From: a virus
Taxonomy: Duplodnaviria; Heunggongvirae; Uroviricota; Caudoviricetes
Length of the DNA: 9,514 nt
Direction: 5' to 3' (one strand)
IMG/VR virus record: IMGVR_UViG_2711768021_000003
Within the stretch, counting starts at the first letter, position 1. Each line of letters begins with the position of its first letter. Positions 1,842-5,713 of the stretch are shown piece after piece. The position numbers and the translations under genes were made by a program. The notes beneath the pieces are model-generated. The model was not told where the DNA came from, did no database searches, and saw only the letters and a list, made by a program, of their open reading frames with translations.

Positions 1842-2212
1842 TGCGCCATGAGTTTATTTTACCTTATCCGCCGACGGTGAATACTTACTGGCGACGTCGT
1901 GGCAGCACATATTTTGTATCAAAAGTTGGTGAGCGTTATCGCCGTGATGTGACGCTAATTGTTCGCCAGCAGCGGCTGAAATTAAACCTGTCCGGAAGGC
2001 TGGCGATAAAGATTATTGCAGAGCCACCGGATAAGCGCCGTCGTGACCTGGACAATATCCTGAAAGCACCACTGGATGCGCTGACGCATGCCGGACTACT
2101 CATAGACGACGAGCAGTTTGATGAAATCAATATTGTGCGCGGTCAGCTCGTTCCTGGTGGGCGACTGGGCGTGAAGATTTATGAAATCACAGGTGATAAC
2201 GATGGCGCGTGA
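1841..2212 (+). CDS. rusA: Holliday junction resolvase RusA (crossover junction endodeoxyribonuclease)
   Basis: ATG 1841 overlaps the upstream stop (ATGA). About 120 aa with '[14 protein letters not shown]', '[19 protein letters not shown]' and 'LIDDEQ' matching the acidic catalytic core of the RusA family. Position after replication genes and before Q is typical for lambdoid phages. Confidence 0.85.
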
Positions 2213-2588
2213 TATTCAGCAGGTTATGGAACGGTGGGGGGCTTGGGCTGCAAACACTCATGAAGATGTATCCTGGGCGTCGATCGCTGCTGGTTTTAAA
2301 GGGTTAATTCCGTCGAAAGTGAAATCACGCCCTCAGTGTTCTGATGATGATGCAATGATAATTTGTGGCTGTATGGCCCGGTTGAACAAGAAAAATCAGG
2401 ATTTGCACGATTTGCTGGTGGATTATTACGTAGGTGGAATGACTTTTATGAGTCTGGCACGGAAACATGGGTGTTCGGATACCTGTATTGGCAAGCGCCT
2501 GCAGAAAGCGGAAGGGGTTATTGATGGCATGTTGATGATGCTTGATATCCGGCTGGAGATGGACAGATACGTAGAACGAATTATGTAG
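2202..2588 (+). CDS. Q: Late-gene antiterminator Q (phage 82 / QuuD-like family)
   Basis: ATG 2202 with AGGTGA 7 nt upstream, overlapping the rusA 3' end by 11 nt. '[18 protein letters not shown]...[53 protein letters not shown]' resembles the small Q antiterminators of E. coli lambdoid prophages, with a Cys-rich putative metal site. A sigma70-like promoter follows immediately downstream. The track start at 2181 lacks an RBS. Confidence 0.75.
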
Positions 2589-2592
2589 GTGC

Positions 2593-2622
2593 TTGACCAG
2601 ACACATTGTCCGGGGCTATATT
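2593..2622 (+). promoter_or_regulatory. Candidate late promoter PR' (Q-dependent), sigma70-like
   Basis: TTGACC at 2593-2598 and CTATAT/TATATT at 2616-2622 with 17-18 bp spacing, 5 nt after the Q stop codon. Lambdoid late promoters sit directly downstream of Q. Confidence 0.45.
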
Positions 2623-2683
2623 CCTCACGCGCCAGCAAAATCTGGCGTCGGGATTGGAACCCCGGATAGAGACCGCGACAGAC

Positions 2684-2706
2684 ACACGCCGCGAGCGTGT
2701 TTTTTA
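2684..2706 (+). terminator. Rho-independent terminator candidate (tR'-like, ending a short late leader RNA)
   Basis: Stem ACACGC (2684-2689) pairs with GCGTGT (2695-2700), 5-nt loop, followed by TTTTTAT. Lies about 60-80 nt downstream of the candidate PR' start, as for the short terminated transcript of lambdoid late regions. Confidence 0.4.
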
Positions 2707-2833
2707 TTGTCGTATGCACGCGCACATCTGAATTATGGTGGGGCGCATGGGGGAGCTGAAAAGCTCGCCGGTCGGTTTCCCGGTAGTTCCAACCCTGTGC
2801 GTCTCACCACCCGATGATTGGAACCTGACGGTG

Positions 2834-2862
2834 TTGACAGTTTCAGGTTTGCAGTTTACATT
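2834..2862 (+). promoter_or_regulatory. Candidate sigma70 promoter inside the late leader
   Basis: Perfect -35 TTGACA at 2834-2839, 17-bp spacer, -10-like TACATT at 2857-2862. Sequence match only. Confidence 0.25.
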
Positions 2863-2897
2863 TCCCCGCGGTGCTCAAAACACCTCGAAAGCGGTAT

Positions 2898-2925
2898 CCA
2901 CACCCGATAGCCATGTGGTTTTTTT
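2898..2925 (+). terminator. Weak hairpin plus T7 run, possible second terminator/attenuator
   Basis: CCACA (2898-2902) pairs with TGTGG (2914-2918), followed by seven T (2919-2925). Short stem and long loop, so weak. Confidence 0.3.
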
Positions 2926-3068
2926 GTGTCCAGAATTCTTGGTTTATGACCGGGTGTGCGGCTAATACAATACCAGCAATGGAAATACGCCCGCCGACTT
3001 TCGACGGTTTTGAGCGCCCGGTCACCCTCTCAAAAGGGGTAAATCAAAATATTCGAAAGGACATGTCT

Positions 3069-3632
3069 ATGAATCGCACGTCTATTGAAAAACTCCCGTC
3101 ACTTACGCATAACCATCTTCCTGTCATGACAACAGAGCTGCTGGCTGATTTGTACGGAACAGAGCGCCAGCGTTTGACAAACAATTTCAATCGAAACAAA
3201 GAACGGTTTATAGAAGGTAAACATTTTTTCCTGATAGAAGGTGATGCGTTACGAGAGTTGAAGAACGAAAACTCTTTAAGAGTTTCTGTGAAAATTGCCC
3301 GTAACGTTCGCTCCCTCATCCTCTGGACAGAACGTGGCGCAGCCCGTCACGCCAAAATGCTCGAAACCGATCAGGCGTGGGAAGTGTTCGAAAAACTGGA
3401 AGACTGTTATTTCAACCAGAAACAGCCACCAGCGGCACAAAACACATCTATCGAAAATGATGGATGCGCATTACTGAGCCACTTCGATAAACACGGTCAG
3501 GTTGAGTTCACGGAAAAGGTACCCGCCGATGCGATGGTATGTACTCTGGAACGGTTTAAATTTTATCTGGAGCAACACGGGTGGATCGTTGCCCGTAAAG
3601 AGCAACTGGTGGAGCGGTTGATGCGGTTTTAA
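3069..3632 (+). CDS. ORF6N/Rha-like phage regulatory (antirepressor-type) protein; cargo gene in the late region
   Basis: ATG 3069 (or 3063) with AAAGG 9 nt upstream. 'LPVMTTELLADLYGTERQRLTNNFNRNKERFIEGKHFFLIEGDALRELK' and 'WTERGAARHAKMLETDQAWEVFEKLE' resemble the ORF6N / KilA-N-related DNA-binding domain of phage Ant/Rha-type proteins; the C-terminal ~70 aa are unassigned. Followed by a clean terminator. The track ORF start at 2871 is rejected because 2871-3068 contains a hairpin+T-run and non-protein-like sequence. Confidence 0.65.
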   Translation: MNRTSIEKLPSLTHNHLPVMTTELLADLYGTERQRLTNNFNRNKERFIEGKHFFLIEGDALRELKNENSLRVSVKIARNVRSLILWTERGAARHAKMLETDQAWEVFEKLEDCYFNQKQPPAAQNTSIENDGCALLSHFDKHGQVEFTEKVPADAMVCTLERFKFYLEQHGWIVARKEQLVERLMRF

Positions 3633-3707
3633 AAATTTTTTCCGAAAACTTTACGATCGTAAAAAGTTGAATATCCTGTTAAGAGTGGTTACTACGCCAC
3701 ACAGCTT

Positions 3708-3734
3708 AAACCCGCCGATGAGCGGGTTTTTTTA
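3708..3734 (+). terminator. Rho-independent terminator downstream of the ORF6N gene
   Basis: AAACCCGC (3708-3715), loop CGATGA, GCGGGTTT, then a T-run to 3733. Confidence 0.6.
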
Positions 3735-3783
3735 TACCTGAAAAACGGCACAGGACGTTAAACGTGCTGGTGGTCAGATGAGT

Positions 3784-3812
3784 TTGCAGATGTGATGACA
3801 TATGGTTATTAT
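3784..3812 (+). promoter_or_regulatory. Candidate promoter for the tRNA cluster
   Basis: TTGCAG (3784-3789), 17 bp, TATTAT (3807-3812), about 10 nt upstream of the first tRNA 5' end. Sequence match only. Confidence 0.3.
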
Positions 3813-3821
3813 TCTGCCTCC

Positions 3822-3898
3822 GGCCCTTTAGCTCAGTTGGTCAGAGCGAGCGACTCATAATCGCCAGGTCGCTGGTTCAAGTCCAGCAAGGGCCACCA
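3822..3898 (+). tRNA. tRNA-Ile2 (anticodon CAT, lysidine type) or tRNA-Met
   Basis: Manual cloverleaf: acceptor GGCCCTT/AAGGGCC, D-arm TAGCTCAGTTGGTCAGAGC, anticodon loop CTCATAA (CAT at 3856-3858), T-arm GCTGGTTCAAGTCCAGC, 3' ACCA. Strongly resembles enterobacterial ileX-type tRNA. Confidence 0.85.
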
Positions 3899-3899
3899 A

Positions 3900-3976
3900 C
3901 CACCACTAGCTCATCCGGATAGAGCATCAACCTTCTAAGTTGACGGTGCGAGGTTCGAGTCCTCGGTGGTGGGCCA
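3900..3976 (+). tRNA. tRNA-Arg (anticodon TCT, reads AGA/AGG)
   Basis: Acceptor CCACCAC/GTGGTGG, D-arm TAGCTCATCCGGATAGAGC, anticodon stem TCAAC/GTTGA with loop CTTCTAA (TCT at 3934-3936), T-arm CGAGGTTCGAGTCCTCG, discriminator G, CCA. Confidence 0.8.
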
Positions 3977-3978
3977 GC

Positions 3979-4054
<76 letters not shown>

Positions 4055-4057
4055 TAT

Positions 4058-4132
<75 letters not shown>

Positions 4133-4167
4133 GCGAGATTTGAGACGAAGGTTGTTATTTGCACTGA

Positions 4168-4179
4168 CACAATATTGTG
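4168..4179. promoter_or_regulatory. Perfect 12-bp palindrome CACAATATTGTG between tRNA cluster and holin (candidate operator)
   Basis: Exact reverse-complement symmetry read from the sequence. No match to LexA or Fur consensus that I can see. Confidence 0.25.
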
Positions 4180-4271
4180 TGGGAATGTCTGACTCCTTAC
4201 CATCTCCTGTTCTGTGATGTTGTTTTGTTGCAGTTCCAGTGCTCTTTTTTCAGCACCAGAATGGTGCATTG

Positions 4272-4559
4272 NNNNNNNNNNNNNNNNNNNNNNNNNNNNN
4301 NNNNNNNNNNNNNNNNNNNNNNNNNNNNNNNNNNNNNNNNNNNNNNNNNNNNNNNNNNNNNNNNNNNNNNNNNNNNNNNNNNNNNNNNNNNNNNNNNNNN
4401 NNNNNNNNNNNNNNNNNNNNNNNNNNNNNNNNNNNNNNNNNNNNNNNNNNNNNNNNNNNNNNNNNNNNNNNNNNNNNNNNNNNNNNNNNNNNNNNNNNNN
4501 NNNNNNNNNNNNNNNNNNNNNNNNNNNNNNNNNNNNNNNNNNNNNNNNNNNNNNNNNNN
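4272..4559. other. Run of 288 N (masked or unsequenced)
   Basis: Literal n characters. Hides the 5' part of the holin gene and its upstream region. Confidence 1.
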
Positions 4560-4661
4560 ATTGGTGTGCTGGGAAGTCTGCTTCTGGGGCTTCTGACTTA
4601 TCTGACAAATCTGTATTTCAAAATAAGAGAAGACAAGCGTAAGGCTGCGAGAGGTGAATAA
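4560..4661 (+). CDS. S: Holin, class II pinholin (phage 21 S21-like), 3' fragment; 5' end lost in N-run
   Basis: Visible C-terminus '[33 protein letters not shown]' matches the second TMD and charged tail of S21-type pinholins. Stop TAA overlaps the ATG of the downstream SAR endolysin (TAATG). Confidence 0.7.
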
Positions 4662-5022
4662 TGTCGCCATCATTACGCAAGGCTGTTGCAGCTGCTATTG
4701 GTGGTGGGGCTGTTGCTATAGCATCTGTGTTAATCACTGGCCCAGGTGGTAACGATGGTCTGGAAGGTGTCAGCTACATACCATACAAAGATATCATTGG
4801 TGTATGGACTGTATGTCACGGACACACCGGAAAAGACATCATGCTCGGTAAAACGTATACCGAAGCAGAATGCAAAGCCCTCCTGAATAAAGACCTTGCC
4901 ACTGTCGCCAGACAAATTAACCCGTACATCAAAGTCGATATACCGGAAACAACGCGCGGCGCTCTTTACTCGTTCGTTTACAACGTGGGCGCTGGCAATT
5001 TCAGAACATCGACGCTTCTTCG
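4661..5022 (+). CDS. R: SAR endolysin (T4-lysozyme-fold muramidase, phage 21 R21 / P1 Lyz-like); 3' end lost in N-run
   Basis: N-terminal Gly/Ala-rich signal-anchor-release segment '[20 protein letters not shown]'; catalytic E-x8-D-x5-T triad in '[16 protein letters not shown]'; '[15 protein letters not shown]' core. The track ORF 4661..5320 is an artefact of reading the N-run in frame into Rz. Confidence 0.8.
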
Positions 5023-5143
5023 NNNNNNNNNNNNNNNNNNNNNNNNNNNNNNNNNNNNNNNNNNNNNNNNNNNNNNNNNNNNNNNNNNNNNNNNNNNNNN
5101 NNNNNNNNNNNNNNNNNNNNNNNNNNNNNNNNNNNNNNNNNNN
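5023..5143. other. Run of 121 N (masked or unsequenced)
   Basis: Literal n characters. Hides the endolysin 3' end and the Rz/Rz1 5' ends. Confidence 1.
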
Positions 5144-5320
5144 GCAGTCTGTCAGTCAGTGCGTGAAGCCACCACCGCCTCCGGCGTGGATAATGCAACC
5201 AGCCCCCGACTGGCAGACACCGCTGAACGGGATTATTTCACCCTCAGAGAGCGGCTGATGACGATGCAGATGCAACTGGAAGGGGCACAGGAGTATATCC
5301 GCACTCAGTGCATTAAGTAG
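5144..5320 (+). CDS. Rz: Rz i-spanin, C-terminal part (5' end lost in N-run)
   Basis: 'AVCQSVREATTASGVDNATSPRLADTAERDYFTLRERLMTMQMQLEGAQEYIRTQC' is nearly identical to the C-terminal third of lambda Rz. Confidence 0.75.
   Translation, partial: AVCQSVREATTASGVDNATSPRLADTAERDYFTLRERLMTMQMQLEGAQEYIRTQCIK
5145..5258 (+). CDS. Rz1: Rz1 o-spanin, C-terminal part, embedded in +1 frame of Rz
   Basis: 'QSVSQCVKPPPPPAWIMQPAPDWQTPLNGIISPSESG' matches the proline-rich mature region of lambda Rz1. The lipobox and signal peptide are in the N-run. Confidence 0.7.
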   Translation, partial: QSVSQCVKPPPPPAWIMQPAPDWQTPLNGIISPSESG

Positions 5321-5362: not shown

Positions 5363-5713
5363 ATGCCATCACTAATCCCACGTGCCTGCCGTAAGCGTGG
5401 ATGTGCAGGTACAACCACAGACAGTTCGGGTTACTGCGATAAACATCGCGGTGAAGGCTGGGTGCAGCACCAGCGCGGACTGAGCCGCCACCAGCGTGGC
5501 TATGGCTCAAAATGGACGGTGATTCGTGCCCGTATTCTGAAGCGCGATAAAGGTCTGTGTCAGTTGTGTCTGCGTGTCGGTGTGGTGAGCGAGGCGAAAA
5601 CCGTCGACCACATCATCCCGAAAGCGCATGGCGGAACAGACGCAGACAGCAACCTGCAGAGTCTGTGCTGGCCCTGCCATAAAGCGAAAACAGCGCGCGA
5701 ACGAATCCGGTGA
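5363..5713 (+). CDS. HNH endonuclease (packaging-associated, HK97 gp74-like)
   Basis: ATG 5363 with GAGGTA 5 nt upstream. Cys-rich N-terminus (CRKRGC...CDKH) and HNH core 'VDHIIPKAHGGTDADSNLQSLCWPCHKAKT'. Located immediately upstream of TerS/TerL, as in HK97-like phages. Confidence 0.8.
   Translation: MPSLIPRACRKRGCAGTTTDSSGYCDKHRGEGWVQHQRGLSRHQRGYGSKWTVIRARILKRDKGLCQLCLRVGVVSEAKTVDHIIPKAHGGTDADSNLQSLCWPCHKAKTARERIR

Follow-up and report, generated by a model that had tools for sequence, protein, structure and literature searches.

Most probably, the gene at positions 3069-3632 (+ strand) of the window (the whole 9,514-nt stretch of viral DNA analysed here) encodes an antirepressor of the AnrP type and is the sole protein gene of a two-unit, RNA-controlled cassette flanked in a lambdoid prophage by the antiterminator gene Q and the late promoter PR'. 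On this reading the cassette belongs to an already known kind of lysis-lysogeny switch and is not late cargo in the style of a toxin gene. The initial annotation had described a 'self-contained cargo gene'; our reading is an effector gene under RNA control, in a cassette of the type known from P1 immI and Gifsy-1 isrK-anrP. What can be read directly from the DNA is the set of RNA elements scored by Rfam, the covarying complementarities, the AnrP homology and the placement relative to PR'.

The antirepressor gene and its protein

The ORF spans 3069-3632 and encodes 187 aa, exactly as first annotated, and the assignment of its N-terminal half to an ORF6N-type regulator of the antirepressor kind is well founded. 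Specifically, the Pfam ORF6N profile (PF10543) matches residues 15-99 of a 189-aa form of the protein with 74.4 bits (cut-off 27.8, E=9e-21) and is covered over its positions 5-86 of 86, PHROG 2379 ('anti-repressor') spans residues 2-187 of 187 (E=3e-85), and AnrP of Gifsy-1 (STM2616) aligns with 184 of the 187 residues at 49% identity (E=6e-58), with an alignment that reaches the C-terminal third of the protein and is weaker there. These matches place the gene with AnrP of the Salmonella prophage Gifsy-1 among the phage antirepressors. Translation is predicted to begin at ATG 3069, a start that homologous loci also keep, unlike ATG 3063, and that lies 7 nt 3' of a Shine-Dalgarno sequence, AAGGA at 3057-3061, in agreement with the ribosome-binding site proposed earlier. 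An AlphaFold2 model (mean pLDDT 70.9) supports a layout of an ORF6N domain (residues ~12-115), a disordered linker (116-131) and a small C-terminal domain (132-187).

The C-terminal ~70 aa, initially left without assignment, received none from our searches either. The region ~118-187 has zero Pfam or NCBIfam matches, its family profile finds no match among PDB sequences, and its model (pLDDT 55-66) retrieves nothing from the PDB with Foldseek at E<=0.001. A word-indexed search returned just 14 near-identical fragments, and an exhaustive HMMER search of 1.84 billion representatives returned 11 clusters only. We also considered membership of the ORF in a defence system and rejected it: PADLOC gave weak matches to PDC-S05 alone (a candidate defence family; E=1e-7), confined to the ORF6N region.

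ORF6N is one of the KilA-N-like predicted DNA-binding domains, and we know of no ORF6N protein, AnrP included, that is established as a direct binder of a repressor. This family background lends some weight to a reading in which the 187-aa protein is a DNA-binding transcription factor that activates the early or Q operon directly through ORF6N, instead of inactivating a repressor, with the RNA control unchanged. We consider this unlikely. The genes found 3' of Xcc1 or C4 control RNAs carry five different N-terminal domains, all of them antirepressor-typical (for Xcc1 RNAs, ORF6N, Bro-N, Rha, KilA-N and P22_AR_N), and the C-terminal domain recurs behind Rha and AntA N-terminal domains, a swapping expected of modular repressor-targeting proteins. 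Moreover, the product of the equivalent antirepressor gene of P1 binds C1 (PMC8198154).

Position of the cassette between Q and the late promoter

The Q antiterminator gene lies upstream at 2181-2588 (+ strand; Pfam PF06530, E=3e-52), as the initial annotation had supposed. Its core is 81% identical at the protein level to the 144-aa Q of Sakai Sp5 over residues 10-133 (BLASTP), matching the 144-aa clade, and at the left cassette junction (~2580) 2 codons stand where Stx-phage Q has its final ~19, in keeping with a DNA homology to H-19B Q that fades at ~2575-2585. Homology to the Stx phages resumes on the other side of the ORF, where positions 3650-3739 correspond to the PR' and first leader hairpin located after Q in the H-19B and Sakai phages. 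The homologue of the H-19B/933W-type PR' (3650-3683, + strand; aligned to H-19B and Sakai Sp5) has a -35 TTTACG at 3650-3655, a -10 TATCCT at 3672-3677 and an expected start near 3683, placed by means of the 258-nt distance between PR' and tR' (PMC7547250). The alignments thus delimit a cassette of ~1.05 kb (about 2584-3640) inserted between Q and PR'.

The window therefore reads in the order Q, cassette with the ORF, PR' homologue, hairpin, tRNA promoter, four tRNAs and lysis genes. The tRNA part, outside the cassette and given for context, consists of a promoter-like site at 3783-3812 followed by four tRNA genes (CAT, TCT, TGT, TCC; 3822-4132, all within 3783-4132, + strand); Sy et al. reported that a promoter between tR' and stx2 drives the tRNAs. 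The hairpin with its T-run (3708-3734, + strand; fold z=-3.3) had been taken for the gene's own terminator. The structure is indeed there, and transcripts coming out of the antirepressor gene would end at it too, but homology identifies it with the hairpin that comes first in the PR' leader (the 5' part of StxS-L) of Stx phages, so it is not a terminator specific to that gene.

The initial annotation had viewed the ORF as an autonomous moron at the Shiga-toxin position, expressed late under Q control and acting in host modulation or superinfection exclusion. The location of the ORF between Q and the lysis genes, its own promoter-like site and the weak PDC-S05 matches are what speak for this reading, which we regard as very improbable. 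The order that it supposes (Q, PR', tRNA, cargo, holin) does not hold, since both the Q-cognate PR' homologue with its first hairpin and the tRNAs follow the ORF; Q-modified polymerase starting from PR' would consequently never transcribe it, which removes the proposed tie to late transcription. The true toxin position, from the tRNAs to the holin (~4133-4660, including a masked stretch at 4272-4559), leaves no space for cargo, and four antisense-control RNA elements precede the ORF. Host modulation or superinfection exclusion is likewise not what the closest studied homologue indicates, as AnrP, when expressed, raises antQ mRNA and transcription and induces the Gifsy-1 prophage (PMC4825925).

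The -10 TATCCT is one position off the TATCAT of Stx phages and the native C-terminus of Q is lost, for which reasons late control in the prophage of the window may be impaired. A different location of the late promoter, at 2593-2622, would follow from what PMC7547250 implies for IsrK, and we rejected it as the main reading: that promoter and isrK also occur in the Nil2 nin region and beside unrelated upstream genes, and an H-19B-type PR' is present at 3650-3683.

Two tandem antisense RNA units upstream of the gene

The 480 nt separating Q and the ORF contain four RNA elements recognized by Rfam models (c4-a1b1/isrK, C4 and sRNA-Xcc1), all above the gathering score (GA). They are arranged in two units, each with a promoter of its own, that meet at 2833/2834. 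Throughout, pairing boxes were labelled a and b from where they lie, and P1 usage may have the two letters the other way round.

Unit 1 (2593-2833) opens with a P_isrK-type promoter (2593-2622, + strand; TTGACC-18-TATATT, expected start near 2629) whose -10 context (GGGGCTATATTCC) is also found 5' of isrK in Gifsy-1 and in the Nil2 nin region, and recurrence in the latter, far from Q, indicates that the promoter belongs to the cassette and not to Q. It is followed by an IsrK-like short RNA (2629-2705, + strand), the predicted equivalent of the a1/b1 decoy of P1 c4, recognized from Rfam (isrK, 77.5 bits, GA 50; c4-a1b1 at 2616-2668, 50.1 bits, GA 46.7), a terminator scan and complementarity to C4. 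This RNA comprises two hairpins and an intrinsic terminator (2684-2705), with b1 in a loop (UUGGAAC, 2654-2660) and a1 as GAGACCG (2669-2675). A C4-type antisense RNA comes next (2731-2814, + strand; Rfam C4, 71 bits, GA 45); its minimum-free-energy fold equals the Rfam consensus (z=-5.0) and it carries the boxes a' CGGUUUC (2773-2779) and b' GUUCCAA (2786-2792). The a1b1 element thus precedes C4, both above their gathering scores, in the order of a c4 module. Two AUGs within C4, at 2735 and 2747, correspond to +107 and +119 of the Gifsy-1 isrK transcript (PMC4825925) and open an orf45-like frame.

Complementarity and comparison with the single-unit locus L061 define a b2 target (GAUUGGAACC) at 2816-2825 (+ strand). 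Past this point unit 1 breaks off: b1, a1 and b2 are found, whereas a2, the Shine-Dalgarno sequence and the antirepressor gene, all present in single-unit loci, are missing. L061, for instance, has an identical C4 and b2, then ...AGAAACCACCAGAGGGCGTCATTATG and an ant gene. With no target in cis left to unit 1, the cassette may in part be left over from recombination.

Unit 2 begins with the promoter that had been proposed for the ORF (2834-2862, + strand; TTGACA-17-TACATT, 10/12 matches, expected start near 2869). That proposal is reinforced by at least 12 of 30 diverged relatives that have a comparable promoter in the corresponding place and by the coincidence of its position with the annotated 'promoter by homology' between antA and antB of Nil2. 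Downstream lies a predicted leader or decoy RNA that has no Rfam entry and was recognized from its complementarity to Xcc1 (2869-2926, + strand). It comprises a b1' hairpin (GGUG-CUCAAAA-CACC, 2870-2884), a1' (UCGAAAG, 2885-2891) and a terminator hairpin (CCACA...UGUGG followed by U7, 2898-2925), whose stem shows compensatory changes across loci and whose T-run is kept in 28/30 classes of relatives.

The antisense element of unit 2 is an RNA of the sRNA-Xcc1 family (2948-3031, + strand), which matches the Rfam model with 77.4 bits (GA 53) over positions 1-87 of 87. In Rfam alignments the family has a C4-like topology, with an outer stem, two hairpins, a single-stranded junction and a CACCC tail; the single-sequence fold is weakly better than shuffles (z=-1.6), and the structure thus rests on the Rfam model. 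Box a' (CUUUCGA, 2998-3004) lies in hairpin 2 and b' (GUUUUGAG, 3007-3014) in the junction. The predicted target on the antirepressor mRNA (3044-3061, + strand) consists of exact complements, b2' UCAAAAU at 3044-3050 and a2' UCGAAAG at 3053-3059, the latter overlapping the Shine-Dalgarno sequence at 3057-3061. Accordingly, segment 2998-3014 of Xcc1 is complementary both to the Shine-Dalgarno region (3044-3059; -17.4 kcal/mol, with 23/1000 shuffles as good) and to the leader (2870-2891; -37.7 kcal/mol, 0/1000 shuffles as good), which carries 12-nt and 7-nt complements to Xcc1. Unit 2 thus has complementary boxes both upstream and at the downstream ribosome-binding site, while it is not a member of Rfam C4. 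By these complementarities, the sRNA-Xcc1 element beside the gene is predicted to behave as a C4-like antisense lock.

Expression of this part of the cassette in a lysogen, which had been suggested for the ORF, is supported by the homologous control RNA, abundant in the EHEC lysogen EDL933 with 40,293 RNA-seq reads and a ribosome coverage of 0.02 at the Xcc1 locus (PMC5331693). The low ribosome coverage bears on one rejected candidate, an N-terminally extended product from AUG 2946 resembling Ant1/Ant2 of P1. Its frame is also unconserved, entering the gene only in TCGAAAG-type loci and ending, in TCAGTAG- and CAAGTAG-type loci, at a TAG that lies in a2. Rejected as well was a coupling of units 1 and 2 by translation of the orf45-like frame (76 codons, 2735-2965) into the 5' stem of Xcc1: the frame runs into unit 2 only in the lineage of the window and stops 82-123 nt before Xcc1 in other tandem loci.

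These structures might be viewed as a decaying recombination scar in which the gene is no longer expressed or functional, given that unit 1 is truncated after b2, that Q is without its native C-terminus and that the orf45-like frame enters unit 2 in this one lineage. Such decay is hard to reconcile with a 187-aa ORF that has zero frameshifts or stops and 52 invariant columns in an alignment of 49 homologues, with the perfect complementarity of a', a1' and a2', and with diverged versions (82% identity) that keep the same composite, and we give it very little credence.

Specificity of Xcc1 loci across phages

Our survey of sRNA-Xcc1 loci covered 76 viral contigs, corresponding to 51 unique sequences and 30 distinct hairpin-2 segments (hereafter classes). 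The loop heptamer of Xcc1 (a') occurs as ~24 types in the 30 classes, and the upstream and downstream sites change alongside it. A perfect complement of at least 7 nt is found in cis in 73% of classes downstream and 80% upstream, by contrast with 4.8% and 7.1%, respectively, for between-locus (trans) comparisons (cis versus trans, binomial P ~1e-22). A perfect complement of at least 7 nt to the a'+b' segment lies within 66 nt 3' of Xcc1 in 45/51 unique loci, with the a2 site ending 6-12 nt 5' of the start codon of the downstream gene. C4 units among the loci vary like the Xcc1 units, with five b specificities.

These trends lead us to propose, tentatively and as a real possibility, that sRNA-Xcc1 represents a second structural class of c4-type, cis-encoded locks with reprogrammable boxes, here stacked behind an orphan IsrK/C4 at the Q/PR' junction. 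The parts of the proposed Xcc1 lock are a promoter, a terminated b1/a1 decoy leader, a processed antisense RNA and b2/a2 over the Shine-Dalgarno sequence. In the literature searched, we found no paper linking sRNA-Xcc1 to an antirepressor lock, and no clan link between sRNA-Xcc1 and C4 appears in Rfam as returned. The family (RF02221) was described as an integron sRNA of Xanthomonas campestris (Chen et al. 2011, as related in citing papers) and is treated, in the literature covered, as a virulence-linked, trans-acting sRNA; one paper notes an APSE-phage copy 5' of an ORF6N gene and leaves it uninterpreted. Element 2948-3031 of the window matches this family model end to end, and in phage loci the family follows the C4 logic of a1/b1 and a2/b2 boxes and is placed before antirepressor genes.

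A further reading has the cassette selected mainly for its RNAs, the orphan C4 (with Xcc1) silencing in trans the antirepressors of the same specificity in co-resident or incoming phages and the protein being secondary. Consistent with this, unit 1 retains promoter, decoy, C4 and b2 in the absence of a target gene, tandem units are joined in three different ways, one locus (L095) has a geneless Xcc1 unit before a complete one, the same C4 specificities occur in single-unit, ant-bearing loci such as L061, and parts of the control region are found in 825/5426 E. coli genomes, in up to 4 places per genome. We nevertheless find it improbable, considering that at least 11 independent viral contigs carry an intact, identical copy of the ORF, that its own lock is perfectly matched, and that trans action is documented for IsrK but not for C4-like RNAs acting from one lambdoid prophage on another.

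Proposed mechanism and related systems

Under the preferred reading, an antirepressor under RNA control, unit 1 would have lost its target gene and unit 2 would directly control the ORF. In the lysogen, the cassette promoters would fire, with most transcripts ending at the leader terminators, and read-through transcripts would be processed into a stable Xcc1 RNA, presumably by RNase P; a CACCC-type 3' tail is the only processing-related feature visible in the sequence. The C4 RNA of P1 is cut from its precursor by RNase P and keeps the downstream gene untranslated. In Xcc1, the loop of hairpin 2 and the junction are predicted to pair with UCAAAAU and UCGAAAG (3044-3059), and with the Shine-Dalgarno sequence thereby covered, no antirepressor would be made. 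The short leader RNA, which carries both target boxes and has a much stronger complementarity, may act as a competing decoy, as IsrK does in Gifsy-1, and the lock would open once target or decoy RNA outruns the antisense RNA. Possible triggers include infection of a naive cell, antiterminated early read-through via Q at induction and conditions that raise the leader RNA. The antirepressor would then inactivate, probably by binding, a CI-type repressor of its own or of a co-resident prophage (the window holds no prophage repressor gene), pushing the phage towards Q expression and lysis.

The closest parallel is the isrK-orf45-anrP cassette of Gifsy-1 (Hershko-Shalev et al. 2016, PMC4825925), which shares with the window the order of Q, promoter, IsrK (a1b1) with terminator and C4-like RNA, the overlap of the C4-like RNA with the orf45 AUGs, a 187-aa ORF6N gene, a short promoter-proximal RNA and a tRNA. 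In Gifsy-1, the isrK promoter drives anrP transcription, yet anrP is untranslated, and IsrK supplied in trans raises anrP translation >100-fold by pairing with the C4/orf45 region; antirepression was inferred by the authors from an increase in early-operon mRNA (PMC4825925). The two cassettes differ in that the C4/orf45 unit of Gifsy-1 abuts anrP through an ATGA stop-start overlap, whereas in the window it is cut after b2 and a second unit controls the gene. They also differ in b specificity (UUGGAAC in the window versus UUGGCGU in Gifsy-1) and in their Q and late promoter, which are of H-19B/933W type in the window and of phage 82 type in Gifsy-1. Finally, a search of the region 3' of the ORF gave no isrJ homologue at E<=1, unlike in Gifsy-1.

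In immI of P1 and P7 (c4-icd-ant1/ant2; Citron and Schuster 1990, as related in PMC8198154), C4 RNA blocks ant expression. According to that summary, the window shares with immI an antisense RNA made from the transcript of its own target, boxes a' and b' with targets a1,b1 upstream and a2,b2 at the downstream ribosome-binding region, control of an antirepressor, and specificity boxes that vary between related phages. P1, by contrast, is a plasmid prophage whose immI operon contains icd and is also under C1 control, and the P1 Ant proteins are not ORF6N proteins of the size encoded by the 187-aa gene; furthermore, the window has two tandem locks, the one proximal to the gene being from the sRNA-Xcc1 Rfam family.

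The ant region of Stx phages (Nil2, VT2-Sa and 933W-like) is 83% identical to the window over 2611-3419. Nil2 contains both units and a gene for each (isrK-C4-antA and promoter-Xcc1-antB). The nin region, 5' of roi and Q, houses the units of Stx phages, whereas the window holds a composite without antA, after Q. The C-terminal halves of the Stx-phage ant products differ from that of the window. The CI RNA of P4 with seqA and seqC, likened here by mode of action, shares the principle of a processed RNA acting on complementary sites upstream and downstream, and the Gifsy-1 authors regarded IsrK as a structural homologue of seqA (PMC4825925). Conversely, P4 CI acts by premature transcription termination of replication genes and controls no antirepressor.

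Implications

Antirepressors set the timing of prophage awakening and can allow one prophage to induce another, and antirepressor action in Shigella and pathogenic E. coli bears on the induction of toxin phages. The flagged gene is a routine member of this class, and the idea of a new cargo can be dropped. NCBI annotation of E. coli genomes labels such genes as 'ORF6N domain-containing protein' only and includes none of the control RNAs. If our proposal for sRNA-Xcc1 is correct, this widespread RNA family gains a concrete, testable function, and if the family is generally a c4-like lock, its many naturally orthogonal a/b box sets are a potential source of programmable translational switches.

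The site at the Q/PR' junction would also be used by the isrK-anrP cassette of Gifsy-1, with an unrelated Q, and in both cases the cassette lies between Q and an apparent late-promoter RNA. If this reading of a Q/PR' cassette is true, IsrJ, and not IsrK, would be the late-promoter short RNA of Gifsy-1. Where a cassette with a strong promoter of its own directly follows Q, placement relative to PR' may be misread.

An antirepressor gene between Q and the late promoter

The window comprises the right arm of a lambdoid prophage. In it, genes for a DnaB-like helicase (55-1587), RusA (1841-2212) and Q (2181-2588) are followed by the ORF6N gene under study (3069-3632), four tRNA genes (3822-4132), a stretch with 288 masked bases and, at its end, a holin-like C-terminus, lysozyme and Rz (4661-5320) and an HNH endonuclease gene (5363-5713; PF01844, E=2e-16), with the small terminase, large terminase and portal protein genes 3' of the latter. 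The ORF is real at its full 187 aa, and the ORF6N assignment made in the initial annotation was confirmed (E=9e-21); PHROG 2379 ('anti-repressor') covers the protein end to end (E=3e-85). Its top protein match comes from Shigella sonnei (99% identical), and an identical 187-aa protein is encoded by 11 IMG/VR viral contigs, those scanned carrying the same upstream RNA elements as the window at equal spacing. The start kept among relatives is ATG 3069, preceded by AAGGA (3057-3061), while ATG 3063 is missing in them.

Two positional inferences of the initial annotation proved wrong. The gene had been placed in the late operon, but a homologue of the Q-dependent late promoter PR' and its first hairpin were found 3' of the ORF. 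In H-19B and Sakai, TTTACG-16 nt-TATCAT overlaps the end of Q and is followed by the hairpin AACCCGCCGATGCGCGGGTTTTTTT and, ~210 nt further, by a second terminator. Sy et al. describe PR' as 'closely associated with Q', with 258 nt from its start to the terminator tR' (PMC7547250), a spacing that agrees with a start ~6 nt past TATCAT and with the second terminator as tR'. Window positions 3650-3739 align with the H-19B/Sakai promoter and first hairpin, giving a PR' homologue with -35 TTTACG (3650-3655) and -10 TATCCT (3672-3677), as opposed to TATCAT in Stx phages; the cassette (~2584-3640) therefore separates the Q core from PR'. At 3708-3734 a hairpin and T-run exist as proposed, yet by this alignment they form the PR'-proximal hairpin and not the gene's own terminator. 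The homology takes in PR' and the initial ~50 nt of the leader RNA StxS-L but breaks off after this first hairpin, so the window lacks the 74-nt StxS-S part and the second terminator (tR') found in Stx phages.

At the other edge of the cassette, H-19B Q DNA homology fades at ~2580, and the window Q is 81% identical to the 144-aa Sakai Sp5 Q protein up to residue 133, after which it stops. Of the 144-aa Stx-phage Q, the last ~19 residues are exchanged for 2 where the gene meets the cassette. Aligned with Sakai Q, the window Q also appears to start at an internal ATG near 2202, not at 2181.

The minus strand of Gifsy-1 has the order Q (STM2617), a1b1/isrK, C4, a 187-aa gene (STM2616, encoding AnrP), isrJ and tRNA. 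AnrP matches the window protein in length and is 49% identical to it across 184 residues (E=6e-58). The isrJ region 3' of anrP (33380-33520 of the Gifsy-1 sequence, minus strand) contains a TTGCAA-17-TATATT promoter and a terminator. In Enterobacter and Klebsiella phages without the isrK-anrP cassette, homologues of this region adjoin Q genes or overlap them, and the Gifsy-1 cassette probably likewise lies between Q and the late promoter. The PR'-derived short RNA of Gifsy-1 may be IsrJ, not IsrK.

Tandem RNA control units

The gene had been considered self-contained; an Rfam scan of the window instead recovered four elements above gathering scores within the 480 nt that separate Q from the ORF, namely c4-a1b1 (2616-2668), isrK (2629-2705, ending in a terminator at 2684-2705), the C4 antisense RNA (2731-2814) and sRNA-Xcc1 (2948-3031). 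With an antirepressor gene after them, c4-a1b1, isrK and C4 in this order correspond to two known systems, the P1/P7 immI operon and the Gifsy-1 isrK-orf45-anrP region. In P1/P7 immI, C4 RNA shuts off expression of the antirepressor Ant (PMC8198154). In Gifsy-1, anrP is transcribed from the isrK promoter, yet the mRNA is untranslated; short IsrK supplied in trans pairs with the orf45/C4 region and thereby raises translation over 100-fold, and AnrP increases antQ-operon mRNA and induces the prophage (PMC4825925). Window ATGs 2735 and 2747 are the exact counterparts of the Gifsy-1 orf45 AUGs, which were mapped to +107 and +119 of the isrK transcript. Compared with Gifsy-1, ~200 additional nucleotides separate C4 from the gene in the window.

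Nil2 has two complete units, isrK-C4-antA and annotated promoter-Xcc1 element-antB. In the window, by contrast, the first unit (promoter 2593-2622, isrK/a1b1 and C4) is gene-less and joined at 2833/2834 to the second, whose promoter-like site at 2834-2862, already proposed, is real. Promoter 2593-2622 moves together with isrK, occurring with the same -10 context in the Nil2 nin region and also beside unrelated upstream genes. One compared locus (L061) has C4 and the downstream target b2 as in the window, then ...AGAAACCACCAGAGGGCGTCATTATG and an ant gene. Single-unit loci (isrK-C4-ant) are the majority of homologous loci, tandem loci like the window are a minority with three different junction sequences, and a few contain a lone Xcc1 unit or a pair of them. 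Of 5426 complete E. coli genomes, 825 contain parts of the control region, but only 5 the tandem form. The gene belongs to a known class and is an ordinary representative of it, set in a variant architecture.

NCBI annotation of the E. coli loci gives 'ORF6N domain-containing protein' alone, the isrK, C4 and Xcc1 RNAs all being unannotated. Another stacked-lock form is seen at 2662-2953 of IMGVR_UViG_2619619249_000001 (L095), with tandem Xcc1 units of unlike box specificities, the first gene-less. Loci L048-L052 (~500-700) are antirepressor gene arrays with C4 units in between: a C4 RNA without isrK/a1b1 directly follows the stop codon of an ORF6N-type gene and precedes a second such gene.

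sRNA-Xcc1 as a candidate antisense lock

In their Rfam consensus structures, C4 and Xcc1 share one topology: an outer stem round two hairpins, a single-stranded junction and a CACCC-type tail. The Xcc1 hairpin-2 loop CUUUCGA (2998-3004) is the exact complement of UCGAAAG at 3053-3059, a site that overlaps the SD, and UCAAAAU at 3044-3050 is exactly complementary to the junction GUUUUGAG (3007-3014). Loop and junction are also complementary to the sites GGUGCUCAAAAC (2870-2881) and UCGAAAG (2885-2891) in the leader of the second unit, which starts a few nt 3' of its promoter and ends in a hairpin and U7 (2898-2925). The predicted duplex of Xcc1 with the initiation region reaches -17.4 kcal/mol (equalled by 23 of 1000 shuffles) and that with the leader -37.7 kcal/mol (0 of 1000).

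With the conserved Xcc1 core as query, the viral contig collection yielded 76 contigs with 51 unique sequences and 30 hairpin-2 segments. The loop heptamer takes ~24 forms (for example, CTACTGA, CTACTTG, CTTTCTG, CTGTATG, CCTAGGA, CTAGTCG, CCACTTGA and CGTGATA), and in nearly all cases its exact complement, fused to GGAG/GGA, lies 6-12 nt 5' of the next gene's start codon and recurs in the upstream leader. In cis, 73% of classes have a perfect complement of at least 7 nt downstream and 80% have one upstream, versus 4.8% and 7.1% between different loci (binomial P ~1e-22). The junction box covaries with both its targets (TTTTGAG, TTTCGAG, TGTTGAG, TTCTGAA and others), and C4 units display like covariation, with five b types. 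Genes 3' of Xcc1 RNAs encode ORF6N, Bro-N, Rha, KilA-N or P22_AR_N domains, often with ORF6C or P22_AR_C added, all kinds typical of antirepressors. On this pairing pattern, sRNA-Xcc1 would be a c4-like lock, the most interesting by-product of the analysis. No paper linking Xcc1 with c4 was found in the literature searched; one records that, in APSE phages, an Xcc1 copy precedes an ORF6N gene. The Xcc1 locus of the EHEC lysogen EDL933 equals CsrB or RNase P RNA in RNA-seq abundance and is practically ribosome-free (PMC5331693).

At ~10760 of IMGVR_UViG_2775506964_000008 (L165), the antisense box and its downstream target match (CTTTCGA/TCGAAAG) and the leader box differs (ACAAACAG); with its mismatched decoy, this unit resembles a recombinant. 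Every Xcc1 locus inspected has kept an ATG at the 5' edge of the RNA (2946 in the window), and the C4 5' edge likewise has one. In the window this ATG is in frame with the antirepressor, giving a 228-aa form (2946-3632); where the boxes are TCAGTAG or CAAGTAG, the TAG within a2 closes the frame 9-10 nt 5' of the start codon.

Domain structure of the antirepressor

An AlphaFold2 model built with 49 homologues predicts a confident N-domain (residues 12-115, pLDDT 80-90), a disordered linker (116-131) and, at low confidence, a C-domain of two strands and two helices (132-187). Neither sequence nor Foldseek searches returned a PDB relative. Detected relatives of the C-domain are few (11 representative clusters) and, because they stand behind ORF6N, Rha and AntA domains, point to a mobile module, which is plausibly the partner-specific part. 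L099-L104 encode, at positions 1-558, 185-aa proteins in which a Rha N-domain (PF09669) is joined to 70 C-terminal residues that are 90% identical to those of the window protein, which indicates domain shuffling among antirepressors.

Proposed mechanism

The RNA elements, their pairing and covariation, the AnrP homology and the position relative to PR' are direct observations, from which we infer RNA processing, a translational block, a protein target and triggers. Constitutive cassette promoters would yield terminated decoy leaders and processed antisense RNAs, with Xcc1 RNA masking the SD on the antirepressor mRNA. The lock would open once target or decoy RNA outnumbers antisense RNA, and the antirepressor would then oppose a CI-type repressor. 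Since the early-right transcription unit ends with the cassette, N-antiterminated transcription would continue from Q into it at induction and strengthen the decision.

Other features of the right arm

A promoter-like TTTGCA-18-TATTAT lies immediately 5' of the four-tRNA array (region 3783-4132; anticodons CAT, TCT, TGT and TCC), whose first member is tRNA-Met by ARAGORN and tRNA-Ile in RefSeq for its E. coli VL40 homologue. The masked run at 4272-4559 (288 bases) covers most of the probable holin gene, leaving its C-terminus visible just ahead of the lysozyme start, and a second (5023-5143, 121 bases) falls within the lysozyme/Rz region. The HNH gene lies directly upstream of the small and large terminase genes, an arrangement that E. 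coli EC12 shares in its P27-family terminase region.
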